Assembly: GCA_040756875.1 (NCBI GenBank)
Contig: JBFLYH010000002.1
Span: forward strand, 222,526-286,525
Length of the DNA: 64,000 nucleotides
Direction: 5' to 3'
From: a candidate division FCPU426 bacterium
GTDB lineage: Bacteria > Oederibacteriota > JAAXVQ01 > JAUVAV01
Shown: piece after piece, positions 12,309-49,829 of the stretch
Position numbering within the stretch: the first letter of the stretch is position 1
Layout of the letters: each line of letters begins with the position of its first letter
The notes under the pieces: model-generated
What the model was told of the DNA's origin: nothing
The model's input: only the letters and a program-made list of their open reading frames with translations
The model's database searches: none
Made by a program: the position numbers and the translations under genes

Positions 12309-12315
12309 GAAATAA

Positions 12316-13462: not shown

Positions 13463-13488
13463 GGACCTCGCCCCCTTCCTTCAATTAC

Positions 13489-13517: not shown

Positions 13518-13550
13518 TATCATGTTATATTTTATTACATTTCAAGGATG

Positions 13551-13686
13551 GATTGCTTCGTCCCCTAAGGGGACTCGCAATGACTTTTTTTCTGTCATTG
13601 CGAGGGCTTTTTCCGAAGCAATCTATTTTGAACTCCCCCCACCCCCTCTTTGCCAAAGAGGGGGATTAAGGGGGAGTTGAGATTGC
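13551..13686. repeat. Family A plus family D composite repeat (right flank of the TA cassette)
   Basis: 13594-13686 is a close direct copy of 10812-10901. Confidence 0.8.
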
Positions 13687-13695
13687 AGTTGGTTT

Positions 13696-14193: not shown

Positions 14194-14206
14194 GAGTGGG
14201 GGTGTC

Positions 14207-15001: not shown

Positions 15002-15087
15002 GGAACTGCCCCCCTTCCTTGTCCGCCTTGACCTTGGGGACCCCATATTATCAAATCCGCCCGGAGGCGCAATATTTATTATCCCCT

Positions 15088-15888
15088 TTAAAACAGGTCG
15101 ATCACTTCGGCGCCGGCCGGCGGCTTGAACTCGAACCAGTCCGCCGGCAGCCCGCTTTCCGGATCGCGCAGCAGGTCCTCCTGGGTGTGGATCTTCACGT
15201 TGCGGAACTCGACCGCCACTTCCCTTTCAGCCGAGACCGCGATCCGGCTGGGCGCCAGCTGGCTTCCGTCCAGCCACAGGCGCGCCTGCTTAAAGGCCAG
15301 TCCCGAATCCGGCTTGGGGATGATTTCAAAGCCCCGCTCCCGGGGGCGCTTGGCGTCCGGCGCCAAGGCGCGGACCTCGCAGCGGGAGAGCAGGCTGGCC
15401 AGCCCGCCGCCCAGCTCCAGAAACAGCTCGCCCGCGTCGCCCGCGGCTGGCAGGGAGCCTACTTGCACCTGGTTGATCTTTTCCAAATACAGCCAGCGCC
15501 GGCTGCCGTTCGAAACCAGCTGCTGCACGTCCGGCTCCTGGTATTCCACTTTGTACCGCCGCCCCGCAGCCATCCAGGCCTTGCCCCGGGCCACCAAATC
15601 CTTGCCCCCGGGCCCTGCGCCGCTCACGGTCATGGCGAAATCCGCCTCCAGGTCGCCGATGGCTTCCTGGGCCTCGCGCAACTCGCGGGCCGCGCCTTTG
15701 TCGTTGGGTTTCATGGCCACGGTCTGATTGACGACGACCGAGGTGTTTCCCTCGGCGCCTCCGGCGCCCGGCGAGGACATTCCGGCCGGAGCGGGCACAG
15801 GGGTCGGCGCGGGTTTGCGGCCCGCGCCCAGCGCGGCCACGGCCAGCGCGCAGGCCAGCAGGCACCAGGCGTTCGTTGTTCGTCTCAT
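15088..15888 (-). CDS. lolA: Outer-membrane lipoprotein carrier LolA family
   Basis: Signal peptide; LEADF, YKVEYQEPDVQQLVSNGSRRWLY...NQV, FEFKPPAGAEVID; directly follows ftsK. Confidence 0.8.
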   Translation of the reverse strand: MRRTTNAWCLLACALAVAALGAGRKPAPTPVPAPAGMSSPGAGGAEGNTSVVVNQTVAMKPNDKGAARELREAQEAIGDLEADFAMTVSGAGPGGKDLVARGKAWMAAGRRYKVEYQEPDVQQLVSNGSRRWLYLEKINQVQVGSLPAAGDAGELFLELGGGLASLLSRCEVRALAPDAKRPRERGFEIIPKPDSGLAFKQARLWLDGSQLAPSRIAVSAEREVAVEFRNVKIHTQEDLLRDPESGLPADWFEFKPPAGAEVIDLF

Positions 15889-15891
15889 GTT

Positions 15892-36800: not shown

Positions 36801-37155
36801 TCAGGCCAAGTTGTGTGGGGGATAGATCCATCCGCTCCTTGATCTTCTCGAGGAGCAATTCCGTCCAGGAGTCCGCCTCCGGCAGCAACCTGCTTCCATC
36901 CGGCCCTAGAACGGCCAGCAGCATGCCCAGGGGGTCCCGGCTGGCGCGGTTTAAAAACTCCGCCTGCTTGAGCGACTCGCGGGCCAGGGTGGCGGGAAAC
37001 ACGTTTTGGCCGAAAACCGTGTCAGCCACGCCCTGCACAAAGACGAAGCGGGCAAGGGCCTTCGTCAATCCGCCGCTGCTCAAGCCATTGAGTATCCCCG
37101 AAACCTTGTAAGCCACGAACGTCAAACCGGCCAGGCCGGCTAGCACGGGAAGCAT
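30865..37155 (-). CDS. Rhs/YD-repeat protein with DUF6531-like N-domain, Rhs core and a 266-aa C-terminal domain of unknown function
   Basis: GHPITLHRGEF...FRRTYRSR...GPQWDHNY; many YD repeats (YEYDANGN, YDALNR, YDPAGN); core RSYSSSLGRFLQRDPAG...NLYTYANNNPAAYLDATGL. Confidence 0.92.
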   Translation of the reverse strand: MLPVLAGLAGLTFVAYKVSGILNGLSSGGLTKALARFVFVQGVADTVFGQNVFPATLARESLKQAEFLNRASRDPLGMLLAVLGPDGSRLLPEADSWTELLLEKIKERMDLSPTQLGLINDYLQADRATDIVSLVRFCLKGLGILNSPAGEQNAETTGHPITLHRGEFFSQHTDFTVNGAGMDFAFRRTYRSRTLYYGPLGPQWDHNYNLRLREENEYLVEVLTGELKSTLFARHPDFDSGLSAGAYNYFAPPNGVHDVLVPCATPLGPSYVLEKTGGLKYEFQPTGQLGQHRIRRILNPYGHCLEFYYSDDDRLKRVDVNSPGRHVNFDYDQEGRLVRLSDHTGRFIGYAYDDWGHLSSVAGPAQAGGFAEILEKYEYDCVGQGLKLARIVDWQGRITAENQYETNALSEFFGYVIRQRENQGEMELDYEWLDDQPETEALADQAVLLVRERRRSGHVVSHYLNEYGNELHRREKYAAGCGMHEAVTCNRFNPDGALVARLGPDGAVRQYLYGRDHLADFSAWPEMPFVLAGLTKQDRMSFGNLLAEVARAERLLPAGLGIQTWWRQLPPVKTTSSPRDRVIKSRFEPERQLLLSRSDPRHTRSADPLHAESLDPGAPGFDPNHPHYQAHQRHLSCFEYGSQGQLLERRLPDRTRPSSALGQAVLTNLRETFHYADCDGKLREVRRVDMNGFEWLTEYYAETDAARAGFVRRRFVPQADWKLDGKTPDVLEIRKYGTWQATESGWLSGGAAGDGVAVDVEGTRITLYQTCGMDERRADHPEVEIKVDGQVRTPGWNQAQDAEYIIDGLERGAHRVELRDMLGQALAVGRIRSQATVEEEADPLGRVVRQTDARGRETQYVFNPLGFKIRQARMGAPGPLLSEFAYDPKGRLLLERQEWRDETGILRASQAVRLEREYDSGGNLTVERRGPEAGGPMRTQRKYYNDEDLLCKTRDARGALTYRDYDPLRRLVRTTQAACSPDRSVDRFFYDEAGNVRFTQGPRGFYHYHGFWQGDQFCFSVDAWGRPLVQTDAAGHLSVIDYDQMDNPLILRRVQQRPDGQYELLSRLEKEYDEHGSLIRQAEAVFSEPILSPVPTDPEQVDEVFFAAQAQGRVTRAIVEHHLDALGREWGVVQPGGGCRSRRLDGQGRPVEETDEVGNRLFRVFDGSGNAVRVYTFEPVRNPGTGEVVRHEVFLMLSAYDDFNREIRHVDAFGNCWEHAYDSLGNRVMTRDPLGNITRWEHNAFGQVIKQTQEMTSTGLGGAPLIADCLTQYEYDANGNTTAIVDPAGRRTEFKYDALNREVESWYAIGSAEPRQRLRYDPAGNVVSLTDRSGRVFRRQYDPLNRMVAVTVDESAVLPADRASMLASRKASFAYDAAGHLTTHANEYCQVAIARDSGGLPLWEKVTLQSLAGVPPPQTLTWSYGLNRKKETVIYPSGRRVGYRYDRLGRVTAVTDPTGGGDIATYRYVGERLLSAHYGNGLALNLAYDGRGLSTERSLSDRDQNVLWRNQVLRDPAGFVRRESCLAPSEARTRTYALDSLYRLAHYQDGPLEWFEKIPAISPPGAPVEPDDAAGQQVVDAFLGTYALPADAVFDYDEMGNRLATREPGLPEYTSVPNELNQYQLVAGRPWLYDRNGSLRQDQDYRYTYDSDGSLQEVFRSDTNARQAAYYRDALGRVVAEVSNEAWFRFHGEQLPMAEWQGGRWKEFVAGNGPAIIVQAWDGDEPYWLTHDRLNSLRVLSDRTGGIRCSPTYRPFGAPEGGEWEASPFNAGFAGMWHTPGVPLYHSRTRSYSSSLGRFLQRDPAGVKAGLNLYTYANNNPAAYLDATGLAPTEEIGDAQAGEAVDPALAPVYLSGYDAIMMVLDYLLWANLVDKIYKQNGGMSYDDASCGYGFAGSLEGPPQPVVSSGPDPGTVSESQEGIYLGPSPDVLEYYMRPAPDVLSRYEAEMVLKTWSMINSNVLSAVAVYASRKASATGYGSLETDLIAAAGGQTAGALLTVRAAWLSMHYPIGSAFSVGASGKTGFQHPGFRPSAGQALGQEMLKGALGVQNITRMGDRLLVRENGRVFNLPAGLGRFKGYDVSRSNPDVPSGRGNF

Positions 37156-37197
37156 GGGCTGTCACCTCTCCCAATGGGTGCGGAACCGTTTTTCCGC

Positions 37198-39249
37198 CTA
37201 CCGCCGCTTCCGCGCCGTTTTCGCGCCTTTGGCTTCCGCGGACGACTGGATTTTTTCCTTGCGATAGGCGCTGGCGATCAATTTCCGCATTTTTTCGGGC
37301 GGATAGCGCCGGTTGAACCTATCCTGCACGGCATTCCGGGTTAGCGGTGTTTTCAGCGTCCTGGGATTCAGCGCGGTGACAGCCGCCCGCAACAACTGGC
37401 CGCGGATCTTCGTCGCCTCCGTGCGGCTGACGCCCAATTCTTCCCGAATGTCCTCGCAAGTCAACCGTGCCAGGTCCGTCACCCGGAGAAGTGCGCGTTT
37501 TTTTCCCAATCCCTTTTCCATATAAGGGCGGAACCGCTCAAATCCGGCCAGCGACTGGTCCTGGATGCCCGCAGCGGCCAGCTGGCCGAGCAGTTGCGCC
37601 AGACGGTCAGCCACGAGCGGGCTATCAAAGAAAGAAACCTGGCCATATGCATGGCGCCGCGGCGAGCCGAGGCTGGCCACGGCCTTCTCGTTGACCGCAC
37701 GGAAAAAAACATCGGCCCGTCTACCGTAGAGGGCGCCGGTTTCCGGCAGGGATTGGGTAAACACCACAGATTCCTCGTTTTCCACATCAGACACGTTGCC
37801 GCTGCCAGACTGCTCCTGGTCAACACCCGATCCGTCGCCGGCAGTCGGCGTCGTGCAAGCGCGAAGAAAGCGCCCCAGAACCACCATCTGGTCTCCGTAA
37901 CCCTCGTATTCCTCGAAAACGAGCGCCACCTCCTCGATCCCGACATTCGGGGTCTTGGCGATCACTTTCAGTAGATCGTATTTGATGGCAGGGGAACCGG
38001 GCCATCCCGTCAGCGTAAAATTCTTGATCTGTTCGTGAGCGAGCATGCGGTAATCGGCCGAAACGTAATTCCAGGTATTCATGAGGCGCGCGTACTCGGC
38101 GTAATCGGGAATCTGACCGACGTCGAGGCGGAGCGCCTCGGCCGTCTTGGCCAGGTTTTCCGGCATATACAAATCGTTCAAAGGGATGAAACGCGGCCGG
38201 TATGTTTTAAATGTGGTGACGTGGGTCGTTTCCAAGGTTGCCTCGACGCAAAACCCCGGGATCGAAGCCGGCCGGTTGACCACGAGAAAAAATTCCTGAA
38301 TCCCCTCCAATTGCCGCATGCCCTGGGCAAAGGAAAATTTGCTCTGCTGGATGTGCGGCCGGGGCTGCACATGAAACACGACCCGGTTGGTCCCCAGGTG
38401 GTATCCCTGCAGCAGACTGTAAATATGATTCAGGCTGGTCGAGTGCGACAGGGATTCCCGCTTCTCGCGGGAGAGGTCGATGTTCGTCACTTGCTGGCTT
38501 TGCTGATTGTTGCGCGACGTGGTTCCCCATTGCCCGGTGTTCGATACAGAACCCTCCGAGGACTCGGACGACTGGTACGAATCCTCATTGCTCCATTGGG
38601 CGACCCCAAACGCCGCGCTGCCTCCCTCGGTTTGGCTTCCCCCCGATCCCCGGCTGGAGCCCCAGGAGGAGGCCGATCCGGTGTCCAGGTCGTAATTTTC
38701 GCTGCTGACTGTATCGGTCATCTGTTTACCGACATTGACGTTGTTTGCGGACTGGCTGAGAATCTCCCCGCTTTCGGTGACCGCCTCATACATTTCGCGT
38801 TTGGTCGGTTCGAAGGCGGAAACATAGGGATAATCCTCGAGGGGAACGGGCCCTTCCGCTTTGGGCAGGATACTGACCTGCAACAAAGCGCCGAAACAGG
38901 GCAGGCACTGATCCATACCCGGGATGTCCACCAGGGCGGCGCCGCTTTCATAGGGCATGTTCAACTCGTCTATATAGTGGGCATACTCGGCGATTTTGCC
39001 GCCAATCTCGTCGTCTTTGGCGAGAAAGCTGCTGATGGTGCACACTACTTTGAGATAGGTCACCTTGCGCTGGCAGTATTCCGGAGGCAACTCGGCGGGC
39101 TCATGATAGAACACGGCGATCGAGGATTTCCACATGGCGGGAAACGCCGCTCCGGCGTTTAGTTTGCTCTGGGCATCGATCATGTTCTTCGATACACCCA
39201 TGCGTTTCCAGGGAACATTGACCGGCAAAGACATTTCCGTGAATGACAT
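37198..39249 (-). CDS. Hypothetical 683-aa protein with a central Ser/Thr/Gly-rich segment and a C-terminal helix-hairpin-helix-like motif
   Basis: Long ORF, ATG at 39249 after GGAGGGG; 42 bp upstream of the Rhs gene on the same strand. Confidence 0.8.
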   Translation of the reverse strand: MSFTEMSLPVNVPWKRMGVSKNMIDAQSKLNAGAAFPAMWKSSIAVFYHEPAELPPEYCQRKVTYLKVVCTISSFLAKDDEIGGKIAEYAHYIDELNMPYESGAALVDIPGMDQCLPCFGALLQVSILPKAEGPVPLEDYPYVSAFEPTKREMYEAVTESGEILSQSANNVNVGKQMTDTVSSENYDLDTGSASSWGSSRGSGGSQTEGGSAAFGVAQWSNEDSYQSSESSEGSVSNTGQWGTTSRNNQQSQQVTNIDLSREKRESLSHSTSLNHIYSLLQGYHLGTNRVVFHVQPRPHIQQSKFSFAQGMRQLEGIQEFFLVVNRPASIPGFCVEATLETTHVTTFKTYRPRFIPLNDLYMPENLAKTAEALRLDVGQIPDYAEYARLMNTWNYVSADYRMLAHEQIKNFTLTGWPGSPAIKYDLLKVIAKTPNVGIEEVALVFEEYEGYGDQMVVLGRFLRACTTPTAGDGSGVDQEQSGSGNVSDVENEESVVFTQSLPETGALYGRRADVFFRAVNEKAVASLGSPRRHAYGQVSFFDSPLVADRLAQLLGQLAAAGIQDQSLAGFERFRPYMEKGLGKKRALLRVTDLARLTCEDIREELGVSRTEATKIRGQLLRAAVTALNPRTLKTPLTRNAVQDRFNRRYPPEKMRKLIASAYRKEKIQSSAEAKGAKTARKRR

Positions 39250-39326
39250 GGCGCCCCTCCCACGTATTGACTGCACGACGGGCTCTATTGTTATACGGCA
39301 GTGGGCAAATGGCAATGGATTTCCCG

Positions 39327-39460
39327 ATGGAGCCCCCCGGCCGAAGGGCCCGGGGCACCTCCTCTGACCTCGGCACCTACTGCCTGGGCAGGGCGACATC
39401 CCCGAAGCAGGAAGATACGCATTCCTCCCCGCGCATGCGCGGGGTTCCCTGCAAAGGGGA
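39327..39460. mobile_element. Short two-hairpin non-coding element, copy 2
   Basis: Homologous to 11364-11490, with compensatory changes in the second hairpin. Confidence 0.55.
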
Positions 39461-39516
39461 TGGAAGGTTCGCTCCGGAAAAGGCAACGTCGAAGAAGGGC
39501 GGCGTTTCGAAACCGC

Positions 39517-40485
39517 TTATAGGTGGGGGTCATCCTTCTGCAGGTAGTTTCGAACGTAATCTTGGATCCCGTCTTCCAAAGAAGTGAACGGGCGGTCGTA
39601 GCCCGCGGCCTGCAATTTCTTGATGTCCGCTTCGGTGCGGTACTGGTAGCGGTCCCGGAGCTCGGCCGGCATCTCGATGTACTCGATCCGCGGCTCGCGG
39701 CCCATGGCCTGGAACACCGCGCGGACCAGATCGTTCCAGGTCCGCGCCTGGCCGGTGCCCACGTTGAAGATGCCGTTGGCTTTGGGGTGCTCCAGCAGCC
39801 AGGCCAGCACCTCCACTGCGTCCTTGACGTATACGAAATCCCGGACCTGTTCGCCGTCGCGGTATTCGGGCCGGTAGGATTTGAACAGCTTGACGCTGCC
39901 GGTGTCCCGGATCTGGCCGAACGCCTTGTGGATCACGCTGCGCATGTCGCCTTTGTGGTATTCGTTGGGTCCGTACACGTTGAAAAATTTCAGGCCGGCG
40001 ATGCTCTTGGCCGCGCCGGTGCGGATCGCCCACAGGTCGAACAGCTGCTTGGAGTAGCCGTACATGTTCAGCGGCTTGAGGGTCAGGCTCACCGCGTCCT
40101 CGTCGCTGTAGCCCAGGCCGCCGTCGCCGTAGGTGGCGCCGGAACTGGCGTACAGGAAACGCACCCCGTGCGCCAGGGCCCATTCGGCCAGGGTGCGGGT
40201 GTACTGGGTGTTGTTCTGCATGAGGTACTGGCTGTCCCTCTCCGTGGTCGAACTGCAGGCGCCCATGTGCACCAGGGCCGTGACCTTGGGCAGGCGCCCG
40301 GACTCCAGCCGGCACAGCAGCTCGCGGTGGTCCCAATAGTCGGCAAAGCGGCGGTTAACGAGGTTCCGCCACTTGTCCGTGGCGTCCAATACGTCCACCA
40401 CCAGCAAGTCCTCACGTCCAAGCTGGTTCAGCTTCCACAGCAGCGCGCTGCCGATGAATCCCGCCCCGCCGGTCACGATGATCAT
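39517..40485 (-). CDS. hldD: ADP-L-glycero-D-manno-heptose 6-epimerase
   Basis: C-terminal 322 aa of ORF 39517..41325: MIIVTGGAGFIGS, HMGACSSTTE, YASSGATYG, YGYSK, FNVYGPNEYHKG, RDFVYVKD, YQYRTEAD. ATG overlaps the cheB stop. Confidence 0.95.
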   Translation of the reverse strand: MIIVTGGAGFIGSALLWKLNQLGREDLLVVDVLDATDKWRNLVNRRFADYWDHRELLCRLESGRLPKVTALVHMGACSSTTERDSQYLMQNNTQYTRTLAEWALAHGVRFLYASSGATYGDGGLGYSDEDAVSLTLKPLNMYGYSKQLFDLWAIRTGAAKSIAGLKFFNVYGPNEYHKGDMRSVIHKAFGQIRDTGSVKLFKSYRPEYRDGEQVRDFVYVKDAVEVLAWLLEHPKANGIFNVGTGQARTWNDLVRAVFQAMGREPRIEYIEMPAELRDRYQYRTEADIKKLQAAGYDRPFTSLEDGIQDYVRNYLQKDDPHL

Positions 40486-41555
40486 TTGCCACCCGCCTTG
40501 CTCGCCTGCACCAGGCGCACGATCTGGCCGCTCATGGAAGTAATCGGATACACGCCGTCGGCCACGCCGGCCTCGACCACGGATTTGGGCATGCCGTAGA
40601 CCACGCAAGTGGACTTGTCCTCGGCCAGGACCTTGCCGCCGGCCTTGTTGACGATGATGCTGCCCTGGGTGCCGTCGTGCCCCATGCCGGTCAGGATCAC
40701 GGCCAGGCAGTTCCCGCGGTACAATTTGGCGGCCGACTCCAGGGTCACGTCCACCGCCGGCCGCACGCTGTTGCGGGTCGGCCCCTGGTGGAGGCGGATC
40801 ACGTCCTTGCCGTTCTCGCTGACCACGATCATGTGATGATTGCTCGGCGCCAGGTACACGTGTCCGACCAGCACCTCGTCCCCCTCCTCCGCCTCCTTGA
40901 CGCTCAGCTTGCTCACGCGGTCCAGTCGCTCGGCGAGGGATTTGGTGAACCCGGCCGACATATGCTGCACGACCAGGACGGCCGCCGGCAGGTCCGCGGG
41001 CAGATGGGGGATGACCTCGTACAGGGCGCGGGGCCCGCCGGTCGAACTGCCGATCACCACGATCTGCCGGCCGGCCTTGAGCGTTTCCGGGAGGGGTTCG
41101 GCCGTTTCCAGGCCTTCGTATTCCAGGAACTTCAGCCGCGAAATATCCACCTGCGCCGCGGTGCGGACCTTGTTGACCAGTTCCTCGGCGACCTTGGACA
41201 GATCCAGGCTGATGGGTCCGGAAGGCTTGCAGACGAAATCCACGGCCCCGTATTCCAGGGCCCGCAGCGTCATTTCGCCGCCGCGTTCGGTGTAGGCCGA
41301 AAGCATGACCACCGGCGTGGGGCATTCGCTCATGATGTAGCCGAGGGTCTGCAGGCCGTCCAGCTTGGGCATCTCGATGTCCAGGGTCACCACGTCGGGA
41401 TGGTAATCGGTGACCTTCTGGATGGCTTCCAGGCCGTCGCGGGCCGTGGCGACCACTTCAATGTCCTCAGCCGCGTTCAGGATGTTGCTGATGGTCTTGC
41501 GCATGAAGGCCGAATCATCGACCGCCAGGACTTTAATGGGGCGGGAAGGCTCCAT
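40482..41555 (-). CDS. cheB: Chemotaxis response regulator methylesterase
   Basis: Receiver domain (VDDSAFMR, TLDIEMP) plus esterase triad motifs GSSTGGP, VQHM, LTGMGHDG. Confidence 0.97.
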   Translation of the reverse strand: MEPSRPIKVLAVDDSAFMRKTISNILNAAEDIEVVATARDGLEAIQKVTDYHPDVVTLDIEMPKLDGLQTLGYIMSECPTPVVMLSAYTERGGEMTLRALEYGAVDFVCKPSGPISLDLSKVAEELVNKVRTAAQVDISRLKFLEYEGLETAEPLPETLKAGRQIVVIGSSTGGPRALYEVIPHLPADLPAAVLVVQHMSAGFTKSLAERLDRVSKLSVKEAEEGDEVLVGHVYLAPSNHHMIVVSENGKDVIRLHQGPTRNSVRPAVDVTLESAAKLYRGNCLAVILTGMGHDGTQGSIIVNKAGGKVLAEDKSTCVVYGMPKSVVEAGVADGVYPITSMSGQIVRLVQASKAGGK

Positions 41556-41573
41556 ACAACAGCGGAAGGAAGG

Positions 41574-41939
41574 CTATTTCGCCAGCGCGCGTTCGACGGC
41601 CTCGAGCACGCGGGGCGGCTGGAACGGCTTGATGACGAAATCCTTGGCGCCGGCCGCGATCGCCTCGATGACCATCGCCTGCTGTCCCATGGCGCTGCAC
41701 ATGATGATCACCGCCTTGGGGTCCATCTGGATGATTTCCTTGACGGCCTCGATGCCGTTCACCTCGGGCATGATGATGTCCATGGTCGTCAAGTCGGGAT
41801 GCAGCTTCTTGAACAGTTCGACCGCCTCTCGGCCGTCCTTGGCCTCGCCCACGATTTCGTAGTTCTGTTTCTCCAATATGCCGCGGATCATCACTCGCAT
41901 GAAAGCCGCGTCATCGGCGATCAGGATTCTGGCTGGCAT
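41574..41939 (-). CDS. cheY: Single-domain response regulator CheY
   Basis: ADDAAFMR, TMDIIMP, CSAMGQQ, FVIKPF. Confidence 0.93.
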   Translation of the reverse strand: MPARILIADDAAFMRVMIRGILEKQNYEIVGEAKDGREAVELFKKLHPDLTTMDIIMPEVNGIEAVKEIIQMDPKAVIIMCSAMGQQAMVIEAIAAGAKDFVIKPFQPPRVLEAVERALAK

Positions 41940-42475
41940 TCGCTTTCCTCCCGCTGGGAAGTTTCCGGAAGTGCGGCCCGTCCGCCGGGCAGACTCTCCA
42001 AGGAGGCCTGCTCCAGCTGGTGGGTTTCTGATTCCGAAAGTATTTTGTCGAAATTCAACATGATAATGATCCGCCCGGGCAACTTGCCGATGCCGGCGAG
42101 ATATTCGCCGGCAATGTCCGCCACCATGGCGGGGGGCGGCTCGATCGCGTCCACGGGCAGGCGCACCACTTCGCTGACCTCGTCCACGATCATGCCCAAA
42201 ATCTGCTCGTCCACTTCCACTTCCATGATCCGCTGTTTCCGCTCGGGCGTGGTGTCCAGCGGCAGATCAAAGCGGCGGCGCAGATCCAGGATGGGGATGA
42301 TGCGCCCCCGCAGGTTCACGACTCCTTCGATGAAACGCGGCGCCCGGGGCACCCGCGTGATTTCAACCAGCCGCAGGATCTCGTGCACCTGGTGGATGGG
42401 CGCGCCGAACTCCTCGCCCCCAAGCTTGAACACCACCAGGCGGATCTCGTTTTTGACCTCGCGGCCCGTTTGCAT
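41921..42475 (-). CDS. cheW: Chemotaxis scaffold CheW
   Basis: LVVFKLGGEEFG, VHEI, ITRVP, GVVNLRGRIIPILDL, GMIVDEV. Confidence 0.95.
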   Translation of the reverse strand: MQTGREVKNEIRLVVFKLGGEEFGAPIHQVHEILRLVEITRVPRAPRFIEGVVNLRGRIIPILDLRRRFDLPLDTTPERKQRIMEVEVDEQILGMIVDEVSEVVRLPVDAIEPPPAMVADIAGEYLAGIGKLPGRIIIMLNFDKILSESETHQLEQASLESLPGGRAALPETSQREESECQPES

Positions 42476-42979
42476 TTACAGCTCGCGTTCGCCGGTCAGC
42501 GCCGTGCGGATCTTCATCAGCCCCGAATCGGCGTAATATTCCACCGACCGGCCCTGGCTGCCGCCCGTGTCTTCGCCCACCACGGGGATGCTGAATTCGC
42601 GCAGTTTATCCTTCACCGCCTGCACGTTGCGCTGGCCGATGCTGATGTTGCCTTCGGTGCCGCCGTTGCGCCCCGGAAAGGCGAACATGTTCGCGCCGCC
42701 GACCAGCTTGGCCTGGAGGCGCGAGAACGGAATGCCCGTCTGCAAAAAATGGTCCAGCATGGTCTTCACCGCGGTATCGGCGAATTTGGCGGGATTGAGT
42801 TCCTGCCGGAACCGGGGTTGTTTGGAGTCCGGCAGCATAATGTGCGCCATGGCGGCGATATGCGTTTCCGGATCCCACAAACCCAATCCCACGCACGAGC
42901 CCAGGCCGAACGTCACCAGGATATCACGGCTGCGGGCGACTTTCCAACTTGCCATTCCGACTTTAATGCGTTCAGGCAT
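42476..42979 (-). CDS. cheD: Chemoreceptor glutamine deamidase CheD
   Basis: GLGSCVG, AHIMLP, KFADTA, AKLVGGANMF, IGQRNV, EDTGG..GR. Confidence 0.96.
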   Translation of the reverse strand: MPERIKVGMASWKVARSRDILVTFGLGSCVGLGLWDPETHIAAMAHIMLPDSKQPRFRQELNPAKFADTAVKTMLDHFLQTGIPFSRLQAKLVGGANMFAFPGRNGGTEGNISIGQRNVQAVKDKLREFSIPVVGEDTGGSQGRSVEYYADSGLMKIRTALTGEREL

Positions 42980-43604
42980 CGACAACCCCGGCTGCTTTCT
43001 GGATGGCCTCCACCATCAAATCCAACGCGCTGGTTTCCGGGATCAGAAAGAACGTCCCCGAAATTTTCGTTTCGGTTTCGATGATTTCCGTCCTTAACAT
43101 CAGAGCAAATTGGGTGTCGGTGGATATTTCAACCAGAATGGTTTGAAGAATCGCGGTCATGGTATCAATGGCCAGCGCGGGCACAGAGGGAATCATGCGC
43201 TTGTCCAGGAACTTGGCCAGGGCGTTGAGATAGGCCCCGGACAGGATGGTTCCCAGCTCCTTAAGCGCCGACATTTTCATCTCGCTCAGCATGGCGGTGG
43301 AACCCAGCGTGTGCCCCAGGAGCATGTCCGTCAGTTGGACCAGATTGCGGTGCGGGAACGTCACGAGAATCTTGGAAGGCAGGTCGCCGAACACTTCGAG
43401 ATAAATGCCGGCAGCCACGTCCTCTGACCCTCCCACCACCTCGGGCACTTTTTCGATCGGAATCACCATGACTTCCGGAACGGACATGCTGATGGTGCGC
43501 CCCACGAGTTGCGACAGGGCGGTGGCCGCATTACCGGCGCCGATGTTGCCCAGTTCCCTCAGGGCGTCCCTGTAAAAAGCGTTGATCTGGGTCGGGTCGG
43601 TCAT
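42972..43604 (-). CDS. cheC: CheY-P phosphatase CheC
   Basis: DALRELGNIGAGNAATALS, SALKELGTIL, SVP. The second ExxN site reads ELGT. Confidence 0.93.
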   Translation of the reverse strand: MTDPTQINAFYRDALRELGNIGAGNAATALSQLVGRTISMSVPEVMVIPIEKVPEVVGGSEDVAAGIYLEVFGDLPSKILVTFPHRNLVQLTDMLLGHTLGSTAMLSEMKMSALKELGTILSGAYLNALAKFLDKRMIPSVPALAIDTMTAILQTILVEISTDTQFALMLRTEIIETETKISGTFFLIPETSALDLMVEAIQKAAGVVDA

Positions 43605-43607
43605 GGC

Positions 43608-43979
43608 CTATTCCCTTTCTTGTTCCACTTTTTGGATGGCTTCAATCACGCTGGTGGGCTGGAAGGGTTTGATGATGAAATCCCTGGCGCCGGCCTGCAT
43701 GGCTTCCACCACCAAAGCTTGCTGCCCCATGGCGCTGCAAATGATGATCCGCGCCTTGGCGTCCAGTTCCACGATCTTCTTGACCGCTTCGATCCCGCCC
43801 ATTTCGGGCATGATCAGGTCGATCAGGGTGATGTCCGGCTTAAGCCGTTGATAGGCTTCAATCGCCACCCGGCCATTCTCAGCCTCGCCCACGATGGCAT
43901 AGCCGTGGCTGGTGAGGATGTTGCGCAACATCATGCGCATAAACGACGCGTCGTCCACGATCAGGATCCGACTAGGCAC
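43608..43979 (-). CDS. cheY: Second CheY
   Basis: GTG at 43979 after GGAGG; VDDASFMR, LIDLIMP, CSAMGQQ, FIIKPF. Confidence 0.92.
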   Translation of the reverse strand: MPSRILIVDDASFMRMMLRNILTSHGYAIVGEAENGRVAIEAYQRLKPDITLIDLIMPEMGGIEAVKKIVELDAKARIIICSAMGQQALVVEAMQAGARDFIIKPFQPTSVIEAIQKVEQERE

Positions 43980-44004
43980 TACGGCTCCTCCCCTCCCCAG
44001 GCGG

Positions 44005-44343
44005 CTACAGGGCCGCTTCCCCGCGCTCGCTCGTCCGGATCCGCACAGCTTCTTCGACCGGCAAGACAAAAAGCTTGCCGTCTCCCAATCTGCCGGTTTT
44101 TCCGGTGGTTGTGACCAATTTGAGGACTTTGTCCACTTTTTGGTCCGTAATGACTACTTCTATCATAACTCGGGGTTGAAATTCAACTCCGTAATTCCGG
44201 CTGGCCTTCTGTTTGAGCTGGGACTGATGGATCCCGAACCCGCGGACTTCGTACACGGTCATGCCTTGCACGCCCTCGCGCAGCAGCGCCTGCTTGACGG
44301 CTTCCAGTTTGGCCGGCGGCAGAATGCATTTAATCAGTTTCAT
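44005..44343 (-). CDS. PII-family signal transducer with a divergent T-loop
   Basis: 112 aa, colinear with GlnB/GlnK: GMTVYEVRGFG, Tyr51, TGRLGDGKLF, RIRT. Confidence 0.92.
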   Translation of the reverse strand: MKLIKCILPPAKLEAVKQALLREGVQGMTVYEVRGFGIHQSQLKQKASRNYGVEFQPRVMIEVVITDQKVDKVLKLVTTTGKTGRLGDGKLFVLPVEEAVRIRTSERGEAAL

Positions 44344-44365
44344 GCCCGCGTTCCCTTCCGGTTCA

Positions 44366-46582
44366 TCACTGTATCAAACGCCGCGCCGTGGCGCCGGACG
44401 ACGGCCGGAACGATTCCATCCAGTCCTGGGCGCTGCGCATTTTTTCCGCGGCGCGCAGCGCCGCTTCGGTGCTGGGGGCCAGCTGAATGAAGCGGTCCCA
44501 GGCCGCTACGGCCTCGTCCCACCAGTACCGCTGGCTGTAGATCGTGGCCAGCCGTTCGTGCACCTCGATGTGCTTCGGGTTCAATTCCAGGGTCCGGCCG
44601 TATTCCACCTCGGCCTCGTCCAGCCACTTTTTTTGCAGGTAGATCTCCCCGAGGTAGTAATGGGCGTCCGGATAATCGGGATTGATGGCCACGGCGCGCA
44701 GGAGCACGTCCTGGGCCTCGTTGGTCCGCTCCAGGCGCTTGTAGATCAGCCCCAGGTTGGTGCAGGCCTCCACGTAGCGGGGATTGATCACCAGGGCCTT
44801 GTTGTATTCGGAGACGGCCTCCTCGAAACGGTCGGTATTGCGGTAGACGTTGGCCAGGTCGTAGTGCGCCGCGGCGTTCTGGGGATTGGCCTTGATGTCG
44901 GCCTGCAGCTTCTCGATCGCTTCCTTGAAGATGTCCTTTTTCTTGGCCGCGGAGGCGAGATTGCGCCGGGCGGTTTCGTAATTGGGGTCAATGGCCAGGG
45001 CGTGGTTGAACTCTTCGATGGCCTTGTCGTAAATGCCCTTCTGGTAATAAATGACGCCCAGGTTGTTGTAGGCCTTGGCGTACTGGGGGTTGATCTCGAT
45101 CGCCTTGCGGTATTCATCCAGGGCATCGTCGAAGTTGCCAATGCTTTTATAGGCCATGCCCAGGGAATTGTGGGCCACCGCGTTCTCCGGGTCGACGGCC
45201 AGTGCTTTCTGGTATTCGATGATGGCTTCTTCGAAGCGCCCCTTGTCGGCCAGGGCCAGGCCCAGATAGATGTTGGCTTCGCTGTCCTGGGCGTAAGCCG
45301 GAGACAGTTCGATGGCCCGCCGGAACTCGCGCACCGCGCCGTCGTAGTTGTTGTGCCGGTAGTAATAGATTCCGAGCTGGTAGTGGGCGTCGGCAAAGTG
45401 GGGATTGCGGGCGATGGCGCGCTCGATCTCCGTGATCGCCTCCTGGATCTTGCCCTGGCGGTAATAAACGATGCCTAATTCATAGTGGCTGCGCACGTTC
45501 TCCGGATCCCGTTCGAACACCCGGCGCAGCTGGTCCTCGGCTTCAGGAAACATGCCTTGCTGCCGGTACAGGATGCCGGCGTTGATGAAGGCGTCGCTGA
45601 GGGCCGGGTTGAGCTCCTGGGCCCGGCGGAAATATTTGATGGCCTCGGTGGGATGGTTCATTTCGAAATATATTTCGCCCAGGCTGTTGGCGAGCTCGGC
45701 GTCCTTGGGATTGACGGCTACCGCCTTCTCGTACTGCTGAATGGCTTCGTTCAGCAACCCCTTGAGGCGGTAGGCCTTGCCCAGCTCCTTGTAGGCCGCG
45801 GCCGGATCGGATTCGCCCGTCGGCGCAACGGGCGCGGCTTCCAGCCCCGGCGCCGGCTCCTCCCCGCCTTTGTAATAGTCGATGGCGAGATTGGTGGAGG
45901 TCTGCGCATAGCCCGGATTGATTTCCACCGCCCGCGCGAACTCCCGCTCCGCTTCCTGGTTCATGCCCTTGTCGCCGTAGGCGAAGCCCAGGTTGTAGTG
46001 GGCCACGGCGAACTCGGGGTTGATCTGCACCGCAGTCTGGAACTCGCGGATCGCCTGGTCGTACAACCCCTTGTTGTAGCAAATCTCGCCGAGCGTGTTG
46101 TGCAGGTCGGCGAAATGCGGGGCCTGAGCAATCCCCTTTTTCATGACCTCCATGGCCTCGTCGAAACGGCCGAGGCTTTTATAGACGATGCCCAGCGAAT
46201 TGATGGCGAACAGGTGCGAAGGGGTGATCTCGACGGCCCGCTGGTACTCGGCGATGGCTTCCTGATAGCGGCCAGTGTAGCGGAAGGCGTTGCCGAGGTT
46301 GTAATGCGCGTCCGCGTCCTCAGGATACATCTGGATGGCGCGCTGGTAGGCGCCGATGGCGCGGTCGTAAATGCCCGTGTTCTTGTTGACCGCCAGCAGG
46401 TTTTCCATGGCCTGCGACAGGTTGTGGTCGATTTCCAGGGCGCGCTTGAATTCCTTGATGGCTTCGACGTACATGCCCTTGGAATAATAAAACACGCCCA
46501 GATTGTTGTGGGCCGAGGCATCGTTCTGGTCGATGCCGTATTCGAACTCCCGCAGATTCTGGGCGTCTTCTTTTTCGCTCAT
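44366..46582 (-). CDS. Large TPR-repeat protein (738 aa)
   Basis: Many canonical 34-aa TPRs (AHNNLGVFYY, AHYNLGNAF, AYNNLGVIYY). ATG at 46582 overlaps the upstream stop. Confidence 0.92.
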   Translation of the reverse strand: MSEKEDAQNLREFEYGIDQNDASAHNNLGVFYYSKGMYVEAIKEFKRALEIDHNLSQAMENLLAVNKNTGIYDRAIGAYQRAIQMYPEDADAHYNLGNAFRYTGRYQEAIAEYQRAVEITPSHLFAINSLGIVYKSLGRFDEAMEVMKKGIAQAPHFADLHNTLGEICYNKGLYDQAIREFQTAVQINPEFAVAHYNLGFAYGDKGMNQEAEREFARAVEINPGYAQTSTNLAIDYYKGGEEPAPGLEAAPVAPTGESDPAAAYKELGKAYRLKGLLNEAIQQYEKAVAVNPKDAELANSLGEIYFEMNHPTEAIKYFRRAQELNPALSDAFINAGILYRQQGMFPEAEDQLRRVFERDPENVRSHYELGIVYYRQGKIQEAITEIERAIARNPHFADAHYQLGIYYYRHNNYDGAVREFRRAIELSPAYAQDSEANIYLGLALADKGRFEEAIIEYQKALAVDPENAVAHNSLGMAYKSIGNFDDALDEYRKAIEINPQYAKAYNNLGVIYYQKGIYDKAIEEFNHALAIDPNYETARRNLASAAKKKDIFKEAIEKLQADIKANPQNAAAHYDLANVYRNTDRFEEAVSEYNKALVINPRYVEACTNLGLIYKRLERTNEAQDVLLRAVAINPDYPDAHYYLGEIYLQKKWLDEAEVEYGRTLELNPKHIEVHERLATIYSQRYWWDEAVAAWDRFIQLAPSTEAALRAAEKMRSAQDWMESFRPSSGATARRLIQ

Positions 46583-47220
46583 GCCGATTCTCCGGCGGCC
46601 TCGACCCACTTCTGGGCGTTGACGTTTTCCAGCACGGTCTCGAGGTGCAGGACCGTGATCAGGTGGTTTTGGTGTTTGCCCACGCCGTACACATGGCGCT
46701 GGTCCAGCCCGCGCAGCAGGGCCGGGCTGCTCTCGATCCGGTCGATGGGCAGCTGCAGCACGGCTTCGACTTCGTCCACCAGCAGGCCGTAAAGCTGGGA
46801 GGTGATTTCCACCACGATGATGCGGGAATCCTCGGTTTGCGGCTGGGGTTCCTGCCCCAGGCGCCGGGCCAGGTTGATCACTGGCACCACCAGGCCGCGG
46901 TATTTGATCAGCCCCTCGATGAATTTGGGCATCTTGGGCAGGTGGTTCACCTGCTGGGAGCGGATGATCTCGCGGACGAACAGCGCTTCGAAGGCGAACT
47001 CCTCCTTGGCCAGCCGGAAGGTCACCACCAGCAGGCCCTGCAACACGTGCAGGATGTCCTCCTCCTGCACGTAGCCGAGCCGCACCAGGGTTTTCCCGAG
47101 CGGCTCCGCGGCCCGCTGCTGCTCGGCCAGGGCCTTGTCCAGTTGTTCCCGCTGCAGGCGTCCGCTTTGGACCAGCAATTCACCCAGCGACTTTTCCTGC
47201 TGGCGCTGCATGAAAGCCAT
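46579..47220 (-). CDS. CheW fused to an N-terminal MshEN-like (T2SSE_N) module
   Basis: SLGELLVQSGRLQREQLDKALAEQ-x5-PLGKTLVRLGYVQEEDILHVLQ, then a CheW domain (VTFRLAKEEF, GLIKYRGLVVPVINL, YGLLVDEV). Start set at ATG 47220. Confidence 0.85.
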   Translation of the reverse strand: MAFMQRQQEKSLGELLVQSGRLQREQLDKALAEQQRAAEPLGKTLVRLGYVQEEDILHVLQGLLVVTFRLAKEEFAFEALFVREIIRSQQVNHLPKMPKFIEGLIKYRGLVVPVINLARRLGQEPQPQTEDSRIIVVEITSQLYGLLVDEVEAVLQLPIDRIESSPALLRGLDQRHVYGVGKHQNHLITVLHLETVLENVNAQKWVEAAGESA

Positions 47221-47222
47221 GT

Positions 47223-48395
47223 TCAGCCACCCTTGACGAACTTGAGATTGTTCCGCAGGATCTCGTTCTGCGGGTCGAGCTCCAGCGCCTTCTCCCACAC
47301 TTTGAGCGCCTTGTCGTGCTCGTTCTGCCGGTAGAAAATGTTGCCGAGCTTGAGGTAGGCTTCGGCCAAATGCGGCTCCAGTTTGATCACGGCCTTGAAC
47401 GCCGACATGGCTTTGGCGTATTCACCCTGCCGGTACAAGAGGTTGGCCAGGCCCAGCTGCACCGCGACGTCGGTGGCGTTCAGTTTCAGGGCCGCCTCGT
47501 ACTCTTTGAGCGCGTCCACCGCCCGGTCCTGCTGATCATAGATGAAAGCCAGGATTTTGTGGAGATTAGCGTCCGCCGGGTTCATTTCCAAAACCTTCTT
47601 GTAGGCCGCGACCGCTTCGTTCTTTTTTCCCAGCAGGGCGTACACCTGCCCCAGCAGCGTGAACGCGTCGAGGTTTTTAGGGTTGATCTTGAGGGCGCGC
47701 TGGATGAAGGCCAGCGCGTCCTGCGGTTTGTTGCCCCGCACCAGCAGCTGCCCCAGGTTCTGCAGGCTCACGGCGTCGTCCGGATTGAGCTCCAGCGCCT
47801 GGCGGAAGGCGTTCTCAGCCTCGCCCAGACGGCCCATTTTGGTCTTCAGGCCGCCGATGATGTTGAACACGCCGGCGTGCTTGGGATTGATCTTGAGCGC
47901 CGCTTCGTACTCGGCCACGCCTTCGGCGTAACGTCCCTGGCTCTCGTGGATGTAACCCAGTTTGAAATGGACTTCGGACAGGTTGGGGTTGATGCGCAGC
48001 GAAGCCTCGTACTCGCGCCGCGCCTCCTCCCACGACCCCTGCTTGTAATAGGCGTCCCCGAGGTTGTTGTGCAGGCCCGAGTCCTCGGCGTTGATCTCCA
48101 GCGCTTTGCGGAACTCGCTGATCGCTTCCTCGGTTTTCCCGGTGTTGGCGTAGATCAGGCCCAGCTTGCAGTGGGCGTTCACGTGCATGGAATTGGCCGC
48201 GATGACCTGCAGATACGAAGCCACCGCCCGGTCGTACTCGCCCACGTTGGAGTAGAGGATCCCCAGTTGAAAATGAACCTCCGCGTCCTTGGGGTTCAGT
48301 TCCAGGGCCTTCTGAAATTCCCGGATGGCGTCCTGATACCGCCGGTTCAGGGAAAAGGCCACGCCCAGGTTGATGTGGTCCTGAATCTTTTCCAC
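47223..48395 (-). CDS. TPR-repeat protein (390 aa)
   Basis: Tandem TPRs along the whole length; GTG start after GAGGAG. Confidence 0.92.
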   Translation of the reverse strand: MEKIQDHINLGVAFSLNRRYQDAIREFQKALELNPKDAEVHFQLGILYSNVGEYDRAVASYLQVIAANSMHVNAHCKLGLIYANTGKTEEAISEFRKALEINAEDSGLHNNLGDAYYKQGSWEEARREYEASLRINPNLSEVHFKLGYIHESQGRYAEGVAEYEAALKINPKHAGVFNIIGGLKTKMGRLGEAENAFRQALELNPDDAVSLQNLGQLLVRGNKPQDALAFIQRALKINPKNLDAFTLLGQVYALLGKKNEAVAAYKKVLEMNPADANLHKILAFIYDQQDRAVDALKEYEAALKLNATDVAVQLGLANLLYRQGEYAKAMSAFKAVIKLEPHLAEAYLKLGNIFYRQNEHDKALKVWEKALELDPQNEILRNNLKFVKGG

Positions 48396-48420
48396 GCTTG
48401 CTCCTCGTCCTAAAAAAAGC

Positions 48421-49227
48421 TCATACAGGTGTTTCCCGCCGCTGATAAATGCGCTCCCGGATATCGATCACGTCGAACCAGCGCCGCATTTCGCCGAGCA
48501 GCGTCTCGGTTTTACCCAGCACTAAAAAACCTCCGCTGCGCAGGCGGGTGTGAAACCCCTTGAAGAGGCGTTCCTGCAGGCCGCCGATGAAATAAATCAG
48601 GACGTTCCGGCACACGATCAGGTCGAATTGCTCGTCCGGCAGCGAGCCGGTCAGGTCGTGCAGCCGGCACTCGACGCGGCGCTTCAATTCGGGTTTAACC
48701 ACCCGCTCTTCGCCCTCAAAAATAAAGTACTTCGCCCGGAGGTCGATCTGCACGGGCTTGATGCTGGCGGCGCTGTAGCGTCCGGCCTTGGCCAGTTCCA
48801 GCACCGTGGGATCGATATCCGTGGCCAAAATCGACCACTGGCAGGAAACCGGCAGCCCTTCGCTGAGGCTGATGGCCAGGGAATAGGGTTCCTGTCCATG
48901 CGCGCACCCTGCGCTCCAGACCCTGATCCTGGCGCGGTCCTGCCACAGCGGAATCACCTTGCGCTTGATCTGGCCGTATACCCCCGGATCCCGGAAAAAC
49001 GTCGAGACATTGATTGTAAGGCGGTCCAGCAGGTTGGCGTATTCCTGTGGATTGCCCTCGAGCAGCCGGCGGTAATCGGCGTACGTCGCGCTCTGAGTGG
49101 CGCGCATGCGCACCGCCAGACGGCGCTTTAAATAGCTGATTTTATACTGACTGGCGTCCAAACCCGCCTTGCGCCAAATGGCGTTGAGCAGCAGGTTAAA
49201 CTGCCGGTCCTCGGGTTCGGTGATCAT
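48421..49227 (-). CDS. cheR: Chemotaxis methyltransferase CheR
   Basis: LTINVSTFFRD, RVWSAGC..GQEPYSLA, ATDID, FDLIVCRNVLIYF. Confidence 0.95.
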   Translation of the reverse strand: MITEPEDRQFNLLLNAIWRKAGLDASQYKISYLKRRLAVRMRATQSATYADYRRLLEGNPQEYANLLDRLTINVSTFFRDPGVYGQIKRKVIPLWQDRARIRVWSAGCAHGQEPYSLAISLSEGLPVSCQWSILATDIDPTVLELAKAGRYSAASIKPVQIDLRAKYFIFEGEERVVKPELKRRVECRLHDLTGSLPDEQFDLIVCRNVLIYFIGGLQERLFKGFHTRLRSGGFLVLGKTETLLGEMRRWFDVIDIRERIYQRRETPV

Positions 49228-49727
49228 TCGGTCTGCAACAGTACCTGATCGCCAGCCTGAATAATATCACGCGCCGCGAGAACCCGTCCAATGGTTAATC
49301 CCTCCTGATTGGAAAGGATTTCCAGCTTGCCCACCTGTTTCAGCCAGCCGGTTTTTCGCGACTCGGCCCGGTCCGCTTCCTGGTCCATGAAATGGTAAAT
49401 ATAATGGATTTCTCCGGCATGCATGGCTACTTTTCGGTTCGGGGAAAGGCAAACTTGGTCGCCGAGCGTTATCAGCAGGTGATCGTCCAAATGGCGGGTG
49501 ATCGTGGCCCAGGCGTGGCCCGGAGCCCGCAGCAGGGCCGATGGCCCCGGGTTCCCTTCGGGCGGGCTGGCTTCGTTCGCATCCGGCTCGGCATAAGCGG
49601 CTGCCTGTTCAGGATCAGCGTTTTCCTGAACCTGGGGTTCCTCGGTCTGGGCCCAGGCCGAGGGGACGGCAATCTGCCAACAAACCAGCAATAGCGAAAA
49701 TATCAACAACTTGGGCATTGTATGCAT
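49224..49727 (-). CDS. Exported hypothetical protein with a beta-rich C-terminal domain
   Basis: Signal peptide (LLIFSLLLVCWQIAVPSAWA), acidic/Pro linker, GDQV...VGKLEI...GRVL...IQAGDQV. Stop overlaps the cheR start. Confidence 0.7.
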   Translation of the reverse strand: MHTMPKLLIFSLLLVCWQIAVPSAWAQTEEPQVQENADPEQAAAYAEPDANEASPPEGNPGPSALLRAPGHAWATITRHLDDHLLITLGDQVCLSPNRKVAMHAGEIHYIYHFMDQEADRAESRKTGWLKQVGKLEILSNQEGLTIGRVLAARDIIQAGDQVLLQTE

Positions 49728-49829
49728 CGTCAGAGTCCTCGGGTGTTGTTGATAGTGTCGGATGCAGCCCCGGCACGGATAACCTTAAGTATAATATATT
49801 TTTAAGCCGAAGGGAAACGAGAATCCGGT

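Follow-up and report, generated by a model that had tools for sequence, protein, structure and literature searches.

Predicted F1-like chemotaxis cluster with PII, TPR and MshEN_N-CheW additions, separated from its kinase module in a candidate division FCPU426 bacterium

The stretch of DNA analysed here (64,000 nucleotides from a candidate division FCPU426 bacterium, hereafter the window) carries at positions 39517–49727 a run of 13 co-directional minus-strand genes that form one tightly coupled chemosensory operon, as judged from Pfam matches and from the gene junctions read in the sequence. In order, these genes encode an exported protein, the receptor methyltransferase CheR, a tetratricopeptide repeat (TPR) protein (TPR390), a CheW preceded by an MshEN_N-type module (CheW2), a second TPR protein (TPR747), a PII protein (che-PII), CheY2, CheC, CheD, a plain CheW (CheW1), CheY1, CheB and the epimerase HldD. 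We consider it very probable that this locus represents the front and middle of an F1-like che cluster conserved in the phylum of the window genome (12 genes, followed by the passenger hldD), that a break between cheB and cheA has placed the kinase module 246 kb away, and that the cluster carries three conserved additions, namely PII, TPR proteins and a module of the cyclic di-GMP (c-di-GMP) binding type. The original prediction, made from the letters of the window, had listed the same 13 genes; all of them were recovered on the minus strand and in the order it gave, by Pfam and, for hldD, by NCBIfam. Its description of the gaps between them as short or overlapping was borne out when the junctions were read.

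The organisation of the cluster was established by comparison with related loci. A protein search with the 213-residue CheW2 identified approximately 33 full-length relatives at 53–78% identity and a few at 36–45%, and a scan of one genome per species with a CheW2 alignment identified 16 loci with a full-length relative. The cluster proteins were mapped on these 16 loci and on 20 loci from other families; three contigs were duplicates, which left 33 distinct loci. The consensus gene order, found in loci of many families, is cheR-TPR390-cheW2-(TPR747)-PII-cheY2-cheC-cheD-(MCP)-cheW1-cheY1-cheB-cheA-cheC2, where MCP denotes a methyl-accepting chemotaxis protein. The MCP gene lies between cheD and cheW1 in 12 of 25 loci, a count checked with Pfam in locus L026 and judged in two loci solely from a gap of the same size. 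In all 18 assessable loci outside the taxonomic order of the window genome, cheA-cheC2 is positioned directly 3' of cheB. Within that order hldD follows cheB instead (six of six assessable loci), an arrangement seen at none of the other loci examined.

None of the 43 open reading frames (ORFs) scanned in the 64-kb window matched CheA, MCP or flagellar families. The absence of CheA and of a receptor claimed in the original prediction therefore holds for the operon and the window; it does not hold for the genome. The assembly (3.22 Mb in seven contigs, of which two are labelled C1 and C2 here; estimated completeness 100%) encodes two cheA genes, nine matches to the MCP signalling domain and three stand-alone cheW genes, two of which belong to the window operon. 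The cheA on C2 (C2:518645-520714) specifies Hpt, P2, dimerisation, ATPase and CheW domains, with a single Hpt and no receiver, and lies on the same strand as the cheR...cheB block of the window. It is followed only by a second cheC (cheC2) and by a gene for a 706-residue FtsA/PilM-like ATPase (C2:515873-517990, minus strand), which combines an actin fold with ThiS-like beta-grasp repeats in its C-terminal half; dprA, a ComB-like gene, topA and xerC come next. Elsewhere this FtsA-like/ThiS-repeat family occurs mostly in Bacillota and Thermotogota (Atlas).

Wherever it occurs, the FtsA-like gene is a neighbour of cheA-cheC2. It directly follows cheC2 in all four distant genomes tested, and in a close relative approximately 210 kb separate it from the block. 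Downstream of it, three distant genomes have an unknown gene, dprA, topA and xerC, the same neighbours as in the window genome. These shared neighbours indicate that the kinase module stayed in place and that the cheR...cheB block became separated from it. The split between cheB and cheA is a single event that goes back to the ancestor of the order to which the window genome belongs; the apparent lack of CheA and receptor is a local artefact of this rearrangement. hldD is probably a passenger that marks the breakpoint. We considered mis-assembly as the cause of the split and rejected it, because six independent assemblies from the window's order show the same cheB-hldD junction. The original prediction had named a split system as the outcome that would speak against it, and this is the outcome that the orthologous cheA-cheC2-ftsA-like module reveals. 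One reservation applies to the assignment itself: that the window block pairs with the C2 cheA is predicted from orthology and synteny.

The second cheA heads a complete che cluster of its own on C1 (C1:916001-936000), composed of cheA without P2, cheW, two Cache-type MCP genes, cheR, cheD, an HDOD gene, cheY, cheX, cheB, a gene for a 426-residue CheX-like protein and a further cheY. Judged by this gene content, the C1 cluster is predicted to be self-sufficient and to need nothing from the window block. Three MCPs of the genome align end to end with the MCP encoded in the clusters of relatives, and the alignments of the C1-cluster MCPs are approximately 28 residues shorter. These alignments fit two separate systems, each predicted to have its own receptor class. 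For annotation, the case is a caution: where a che cluster seems to be “without CheA”, the other half of a split system may lie elsewhere in the genome.

By its gene set and closest relatives, the system appears to be F1-like, that is, of the Thermotoga, Bacillus and archaeal type, with conserved additions of PII, TPR and c-di-GMP type, and to be split in this lineage. The F1 class is part of a chemosensory classification reportedly set out by Wuichet and Zhulin in 2010. Our class comparison relied on the best-scoring NCBIfam models and PDB relatives. With the F1 systems of B. subtilis, T. maritima and haloarchaea, the system shares a CheA of domains P1–P5 (encoded elsewhere in the genome), CheW, CheY, CheB and CheR, and the joint presence of CheC and CheD. 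The five-domain build of CheA, including P2, was recognised by Pfam in both the C2 protein and its L026 orthologue. The best NCBIfam model for CheA is the haloarchaeal one (565 bits vs 373 for the E. coli type), and the closest solved CheA is that of T. maritima. For cheC the best model is CheC_Thtogales (154 bits, below the cut-off of 250) and for cheD it is CheD_Thtga, also below the equivalog cut-off. These models agree with the remark in the original prediction that CheC plus CheD is found in pathways of the Bacillus, Thermotoga and archaeal type. The MCP of the L026 cluster gives a gapless 193-residue alignment to T. maritima TM1143, which we take to be a 44H receptor. In the window CheC, the first active-site motif is intact and the second has N replaced by T; CheC2 keeps both motifs in 19 of 19 loci. 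Beyond what the F1 systems have, the cluster encodes a PII and two large TPR proteins, and has CheW, CheY and CheC in two versions each, one CheW bearing the MshEN_N module. Many lineages add the FtsA-like/ThiS-repeat ATPase, an HD-GYP gene or a PilT-TPR gene, and in the window genome neither the kinase module nor the receptors are encoded with the rest.

The output of the system may be the flagellar motor or type IV pili, the latter having been suggested in the original prediction. We regard steering of type IV pili (twitching or retraction) rather than of a flagellar motor as possible but doubtful. The suggestion did gain support from gene neighbourhoods. A fusion of PilT and TPR of approximately 780 residues is encoded upstream of cheR in 10 of the 20 loci of other families (L053, L055–L058, L067–L069 and L071, with L054 partial). 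Also, the C2 cheA module lies 3.8 kb downstream of a pilus locus in the same orientation (within C2:526001-541000), which comprises pilT-like and pilin-like genes, pilM, pilN, pilO, three unknown ORFs and pilQ. MshEN_N modules, moreover, are typical of pilus ATPases. Against this, the housekeeping genes aroC and aroK, a pta-like (PTA_PTB) gene and a methyltransferase gene part pilQ from cheA, and no pilus gene was found in the 12–15 kb flanks of four distant relatives. The genome also holds two flagellin genes and flhA, and the kit itself is of F1-like type: its CheA bears P2 and its CheYs consist of a single domain, traits shared with flagellar systems. In Pil-Chp systems of the Tfp class, the kinase is of the ChpA type and has multiple Hpt domains plus a receiver, and PilG, PilH and PilJ complete the set. 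None of these traits is present in the kit; its kinase, the C2 CheA, has a single Hpt domain and lacks a receiver.

One of the additions is the PII gene. It was found in 28 of the 30 loci reaching its position, its site between TPR747 (or cheW2) and cheY2 never changes, and in the relatives cheY2 always comes directly after it. TPR390 directly follows cheR in every related locus covering the position, and TPR747 is present in all loci reaching its position except L053 and L069, which belong to one family. Conservation of the PII and TPR genes within homologous clusters, on which the original prediction depended, was accordingly observed.

The che-PII protein (112 residues) gives a gapless 111-residue alignment to the solved GlnB structure 2EG1 (E 1e-30). 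Among 25 che-PIIs, residues G35, G84, D88, G89, K90, F92, R101 and R103 are invariant, and we take these to be the nucleotide-binding set of PII proteins. The protein nevertheless scores below the NCBIfam equivalog cut-offs for both GlnB (101 vs 181) and GlnK (94.4 vs 202), and four other PII-like ORFs are present in the genome. A tree was built of che-PIIs and paralogues from six genomes; apart from one on a very long branch, the non-che paralogues form a group at 93/87. A single che-PII clade is compatible with the data (p-AU 0.51), a value that is no proof of such a clade. Based on these comparisons, we assign che-PII as a predicted dedicated paralogue. With GlnB and GlnK it shares length, gapless alignment to GlnB and the nucleotide-binding residues; it differs from them in having its gene in a che operon beside cheY, rather than with amtB or glnA, and in a divergent T-loop.

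Several observations on PII weigh against the main reading. Two loci of family f21 (L028 and L029) contain only cheR-TPR390-cheW2, without PII, and a query with che-PII of both f21 genomes (83–84% complete) found no che-type PII. The T-loop is of standard length but variable: the tyrosine at position 51 of the window protein is replaced by I, V or L in many relatives. The window protein has H39 and R58 where most relatives have Q and K or R, respectively. The variable T-loop, the unconserved Y51 and the H39/R58 pair make sensing of 2-oxoglutarate uncertain. As to a partner, our first guess is CheY2, a pairing that rests on gene adjacency.

It could be argued that the PII and TPR genes are passengers like hldD, serving nitrogen and carbon control or envelope biogenesis rather than chemosensing, and we consider this improbable. 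hldD does demonstrate that unrelated genes can be translationally coupled into the operon, TPR proteins are generic, and the PII keeps all canonical nucleotide-binding residues of nitrogen-regulatory PII. The position of PII is however fixed in nearly all loci, across many families and down to 36–40% identity, which is not the pattern of hldD, confined to one order. In addition, separate GlnB/K-type paralogues exist in the genome, and che-PII itself does not reach the GlnB and GlnK equivalog cut-offs. We therefore favour PII and the TPR proteins as components of the chemosensory system.

PII is a classic sensor of energy and of carbon and nitrogen status, and chemotaxis a sensor of the outside world, so that a PII gene kept in a che operon across a phylum suggests a direct wire between the two. 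A precedent for PII influencing c-di-GMP levels and taxis behaviour is described in an excerpt of a study on A. brasilense, in which GlnZ is linked to c-di-GMP enzymes and to aerotaxis (Gerhardt et al, 2020; PMC7646526). There, as far as that excerpt goes, the targets of a general PII are a diguanylate cyclase and a phosphodiesterase; here a dedicated paralogue would act from within the che cluster.

The TPR proteins have a possible precedent in fusions of CheR to TPR. According to the excerpted parts of Munoz-Martinez et al (2012) (PMC3447774), such fusions carry a short TPR tail, often of two repeats, and accompany multidomain regulators of pathways for alternative cellular functions. Like the fusions of WspC and FrzF type, the present system has a TPR partner tied to CheR, with TPR390 encoded next to cheR. 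Unlike them, to the extent that those excerpts describe them, the genes are separate, the TPR protein has approximately 10 repeats, the CheYs are single-domain and CheR itself carries no TPR.

The third addition is the N-terminal module of CheW2. Residues 11–34 and 40–63 form two 24-residue motifs separated by a five-residue spacer (35–39), a unit of 53 residues. In the available portion of Wang et al (2016) (PMC5013675), the c-di-GMP site of MshEN_N is described as two 24-residue motifs with a five-residue spacer, and the repeats in CheW2 therefore have the geometry of this site. The NCBIfam model NF053729 (c-di-GMP_motif), which represents an MshE-related c-di-GMP domain, matches CheW2 with 55.2 bits, above its cut-off of 38. 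The module is 44–56% identical to the N-termini of T2SSE ATPases, and matches covering the module only were to T2SSE/PilB-type ATPases. Searched against the PDB, a profile of the CheW2 N-domain retrieved PilF GSPII-B of T. thermophilus (E 1e-11) and MshE of V. cholerae (E 5e-11). An AlphaFold2 model of this domain (pLDDT 87.8) features four helices, and its top Foldseek match is 5HTL, MshE with c-di-GMP (TMq 0.75, root mean square deviation (rmsd) 1.0 A, 40% identity). MshE or PilF GSPII-B in complex with c-di-GMP accounts for each of the 11 best-ranked Foldseek rows (TMq 0.67–0.75, rmsd 0.8–1.1 A). An HD-GYP gene next to cheR in eight relatives provides independent neighbourhood support for a c-di-GMP link.

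Other results weigh against c-di-GMP binding by this module. The Foldseek E-values are weak (0.013 at best), which we attribute to the shortness of the CheW2 N-domain. The Pfam MshEN model (PF05157) did not match the CheW2 N-terminus even at E<=10; in pilus ATPases, PF05157 covers the stretch that comes after the MshEN_N-type module. Strict motif residues are also unmet: position 1 is S11 and P40 rather than R, and position 24 of motif 2 is L63 rather than Q, with the strict Q kept at position 24 of motif 1 (Q34). These are not peculiarities of the window protein, as S11 and P40 are near-invariant and L63 invariant in a 20-sequence alignment, and a 23-sequence alignment agrees for S11 and P40. 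Furthermore, neither motif fully fits the relaxed pattern given in the portion of Wang et al (2016) available. The solved PilF GSPII-B binds although position 1 of its motifs is K and L, and its K167L, Q190E and Q218E mutants were crystallised with c-di-GMP according to the PDB entry titles. Given this tolerance, the departures at positions 1 and 24 are not decisive. Overall, sequence and model make c-di-GMP binding by the CheW2 N-domain plausible. The MshEN-like CheW and c-di-GMP link of the original prediction find support in sequence, fold and the HD-GYP neighbour, even though the Pfam MshEN model is silent. The only Pfam match to the CheW2 N-terminus at E<=10, DUF4388, was weak (E 0.0036) and was discarded.

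With the known MshEN_N modules of V. cholerae MshE and PilF GSPII-B, the CheW2 module shares the four-helix unit at 40–47% identity and a superposition of 0.8–1.0 A; it differs in its fusion to a stand-alone CheW and in the three motif residues noted above (S11, P40 and L63). Fusions of MshEN_N to CheA and CheX are listed in the supplement of Wang et al (2016), and its available portion does not list CheW. If it binds, MshEN_N-CheW would open a new route by which c-di-GMP acts on the receptor array. In other bacteria, c-di-GMP is said to feed into chemotaxis through PilZ-type adaptors, as in P. aeruginosa MapZ-CheR1 and A. brasilense Tlp1. Here the putative receptor module for c-di-GMP would be an MshEN_N on CheW, not PilZ. 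As a separate observation, two adjacent GAF-GGDEF diguanylate cyclase genes are located in the window at 55253-58125 (minus strand), approximately 5.5 kb upstream of the che operon; prmC, a DUF1284 gene, thyX and rho occupy the interval.

Taken with the gene order, these assignments allow a model of how the system might operate. A rearrangement would have broken the cluster 3' of cheB, leaving the kinase module beside dprA-topA-xerC, and the in-cluster receptor would have been lost, with receptors of the same length class encoded elsewhere. The 44H-like receptors, the C2 CheA, CheW1 and CheW2 are expected to form arrays in which CheA would phosphorylate CheY1, CheY2 and CheB. CheC and CheC2 would dephosphorylate CheY-P, and CheD, CheR and CheB would set the modification state of the receptors. 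Binding of c-di-GMP to the MshEN_N module of CheW2 would probably alter coupling in the array. The dedicated PII would probably read ATP/ADP, perhaps also 2-oxoglutarate, and bind a protein of the cluster. TPR390 may be the detached counterpart of the TPR tail in the CheR fusions, and both TPR proteins may act as scaffolds. We put forward, tentatively and at less than even chance, that PII in this role gates the taxis output by binding CheY2, CheC/CheD or the TPR scaffold, and that c-di-GMP acts on the array via MshEN_N-CheW. If true, an F1-type system would be under a “dual gate” of metabolism and second messenger for which no counterpart has been described. All parts are small soluble proteins that could be made and tested in vitro, despite their uncultured hosts. 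A full-text literature search, in which most subscription journals were not covered, found no paper on a PII gene in a che cluster or on MshEN-CheW.

A self-contained class that works without CheA and receptors and integrates PII and c-di-GMP through TPR scaffolds, as originally envisaged, is hardly tenable: the operon and the window do lack cheA and MCP genes, as do all six assessable loci of the window's order, but the same genome contains the orthologous kinase module and three MCPs of matching length class, cheA-cheC2 is contiguous with the block in every assessable locus outside that order, and we know of no role for CheW, CheR, CheB, CheD or CheY without kinase and receptors. What remains of the “unusual chemosensory class” is a conserved che system with PII, TPR proteins and MshEN_N-CheW.

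To assess how widely the F1-like cluster occurs, the 99 species genomes of the GTDB phylum that includes the window genome were examined. Of these, 68 have a CheW2 match at E<=1e-20, and in 65 the match included the N-terminal module (a manual count of matches starting within the first eight residues). CheW2-bearing genomes represent 16 of the 23 families of the phylum, with NCBI labels that include Firestonebacteria and Goldiibacteriota. The FtsA-like gene is present in 47 of the 99 genomes and in none of the 22 genomes from families without CheW2. A point against its general membership in the system is its absence from 28 of the 31 genomes of family f12. The original prediction had proposed gene-order conservation across phyla as a check; all full-length relatives found lie in the window's own GTDB phylum. 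Metagenome-assembled genomes labelled Spirochaetia or Methylomirabilis seemed to extend the range, and were discounted because these contigs are placed in the same phylum. In a search of protein representatives with the CheW2 alignment, the best 150 were mostly proteins with three to five tandem CheW domains, and only four covered both domains in a single stretch. In three genomes of one genus of the window's order (G025–G027, genus g9), the CheW2 query matches only from residue 40–58 and the FtsA-like gene is present; judged from these matches, the adaptor there may lack the N-terminal module.

The features of the operon are listed in Table 1. Its 5' end is variable among loci. In eight loci, genes for a small TPR/YfiO-like lipoprotein, an unknown protein and an HD-GYP (HD_5) protein precede cheR, and the close kin of the window genome have only the exported 167-residue protein (exp167). 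No Pfam or NCBIfam family matched exp167, and of the cluster loci mapped, L018 (144 bits) and L023 (32 bits) were the only ones with a relative. A resemblance to FlgT_C was considered, and the Atlas leads (score 0.86; TM 0.5–0.6) were too weak to name it. The intergenic stretch upstream of exp167 is the likely operon promoter, as inferred from its composition. A consensus promoter and terminator scan listed no site within 49728..49829, and the scan performed at chance level (7 promoter-like sites vs 3.9+/-2.0; 16 terminator-like sites vs 15.2+/-3.7). Among sequencing runs, a look-up of the stretch listed no RNA run and one DNA run, from a groundwater metagenome, as its possible source.

Table 1. 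Features of the che operon in the window, from the 5' end
Feature	Coordinates	Strand	Basis
Putative operon promoter	49728..49829	-	AT-rich intergenic stretch prmC/exp167, approximately 100 nt, TATA-like hexamers
exp167, exported protein, first gene	49224..49727	-	Signal-peptide-like hydrophobic N-terminus
cheR, receptor methyltransferase, 268 aa	48421..49227	-	CheR_N 50.8 bits and CheR 166.6 bits (Pfam)
TPR390, all-TPR protein, 390 aa, approximately 10–11 repeats	47223..48395	-	TPR families only (Pfam, NCBIfam)
cheW2, 213-aa adaptor, MshEN_N-type four-helix module (residues approximately 8–62) and CheW domain	46579..47220	-	CheW 114.6 bits
TPR747, large all-TPR protein, 738 aa	44366..46582	-	TPR families only (Pfam, NCBIfam)
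che-PII, 112 aa, GlnB/GlnK-type length and fold signature	44005..44343	-	P-II 91.8 bits (Pfam)
cheY2, single-domain response regulator	43608..43979	-	Response_reg 106.1 bits
cheC, CheY-P phosphatase family	42972..43604	-	CheC 83.8 bits
cheD, receptor deamidase	42476..42985	-	CheD 107.9 bits
cheW1, plain CheW adaptor	41921..42475	-	CheW 132.8 bits
cheY1, single-domain response regulator	41574..41939	-	Response_reg 104.6 bits
cheB, receptor methylesterase with receiver domain, last che gene of the block	40482..41555	-	Response_reg and CheB_methylest 217.9 bits
hldD, ADP-glyceromanno-heptose 6-epimerase	39517..40485	-	Epimerase (Pfam); TIGR02197 415.5 bits vs cut-off 274.6 (NCBIfam)

Start and stop codons overlap as ATGA at three junctions (exp167/cheR, cheW2/TPR747 and cheB/hldD), and the remaining junctions are gaps of 0 to approximately 25 nt or overlaps of <=19 nt. 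For four genes, a start was preferred on reading the sequence. The listed cheW2 ORF spans 46579-47298, with the CheW domain at its residues 91–225, and the likelier start is the ATG at 47220 (213 aa). Likewise, the TPR747 ORF is listed as 44366-46609 with a likelier ATG at 46582, and the cheY2 ORF as 43608-44069 with a likelier GTG at 43979, preceded by GGAGG. The likelier start of hldD is the ATG at 40485. The two CheYs are 61% identical to each other, and CheW1 is 34% identical to the CheW domain of CheW2.

Directly 3' of hldD, the region 30865-39486 (minus strand) comprises a 762-residue ORF and a 2096-residue ORF with RHS repeats and DUF6531. The 762-residue ORF matched no Pfam or NCBIfam family. 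From these domains, the region looks like a polymorphic-toxin-type locus. Further along the window, at approximately 10000-17700, is a low-GC island (GC 0.50–0.54 vs approximately 0.62–0.70 around it), which contains a gene of the helix-turn-helix and SocA/Panacea antitoxin type (12671-13462) and three family-less ORFs, including one of 883 residues (15019-17670).

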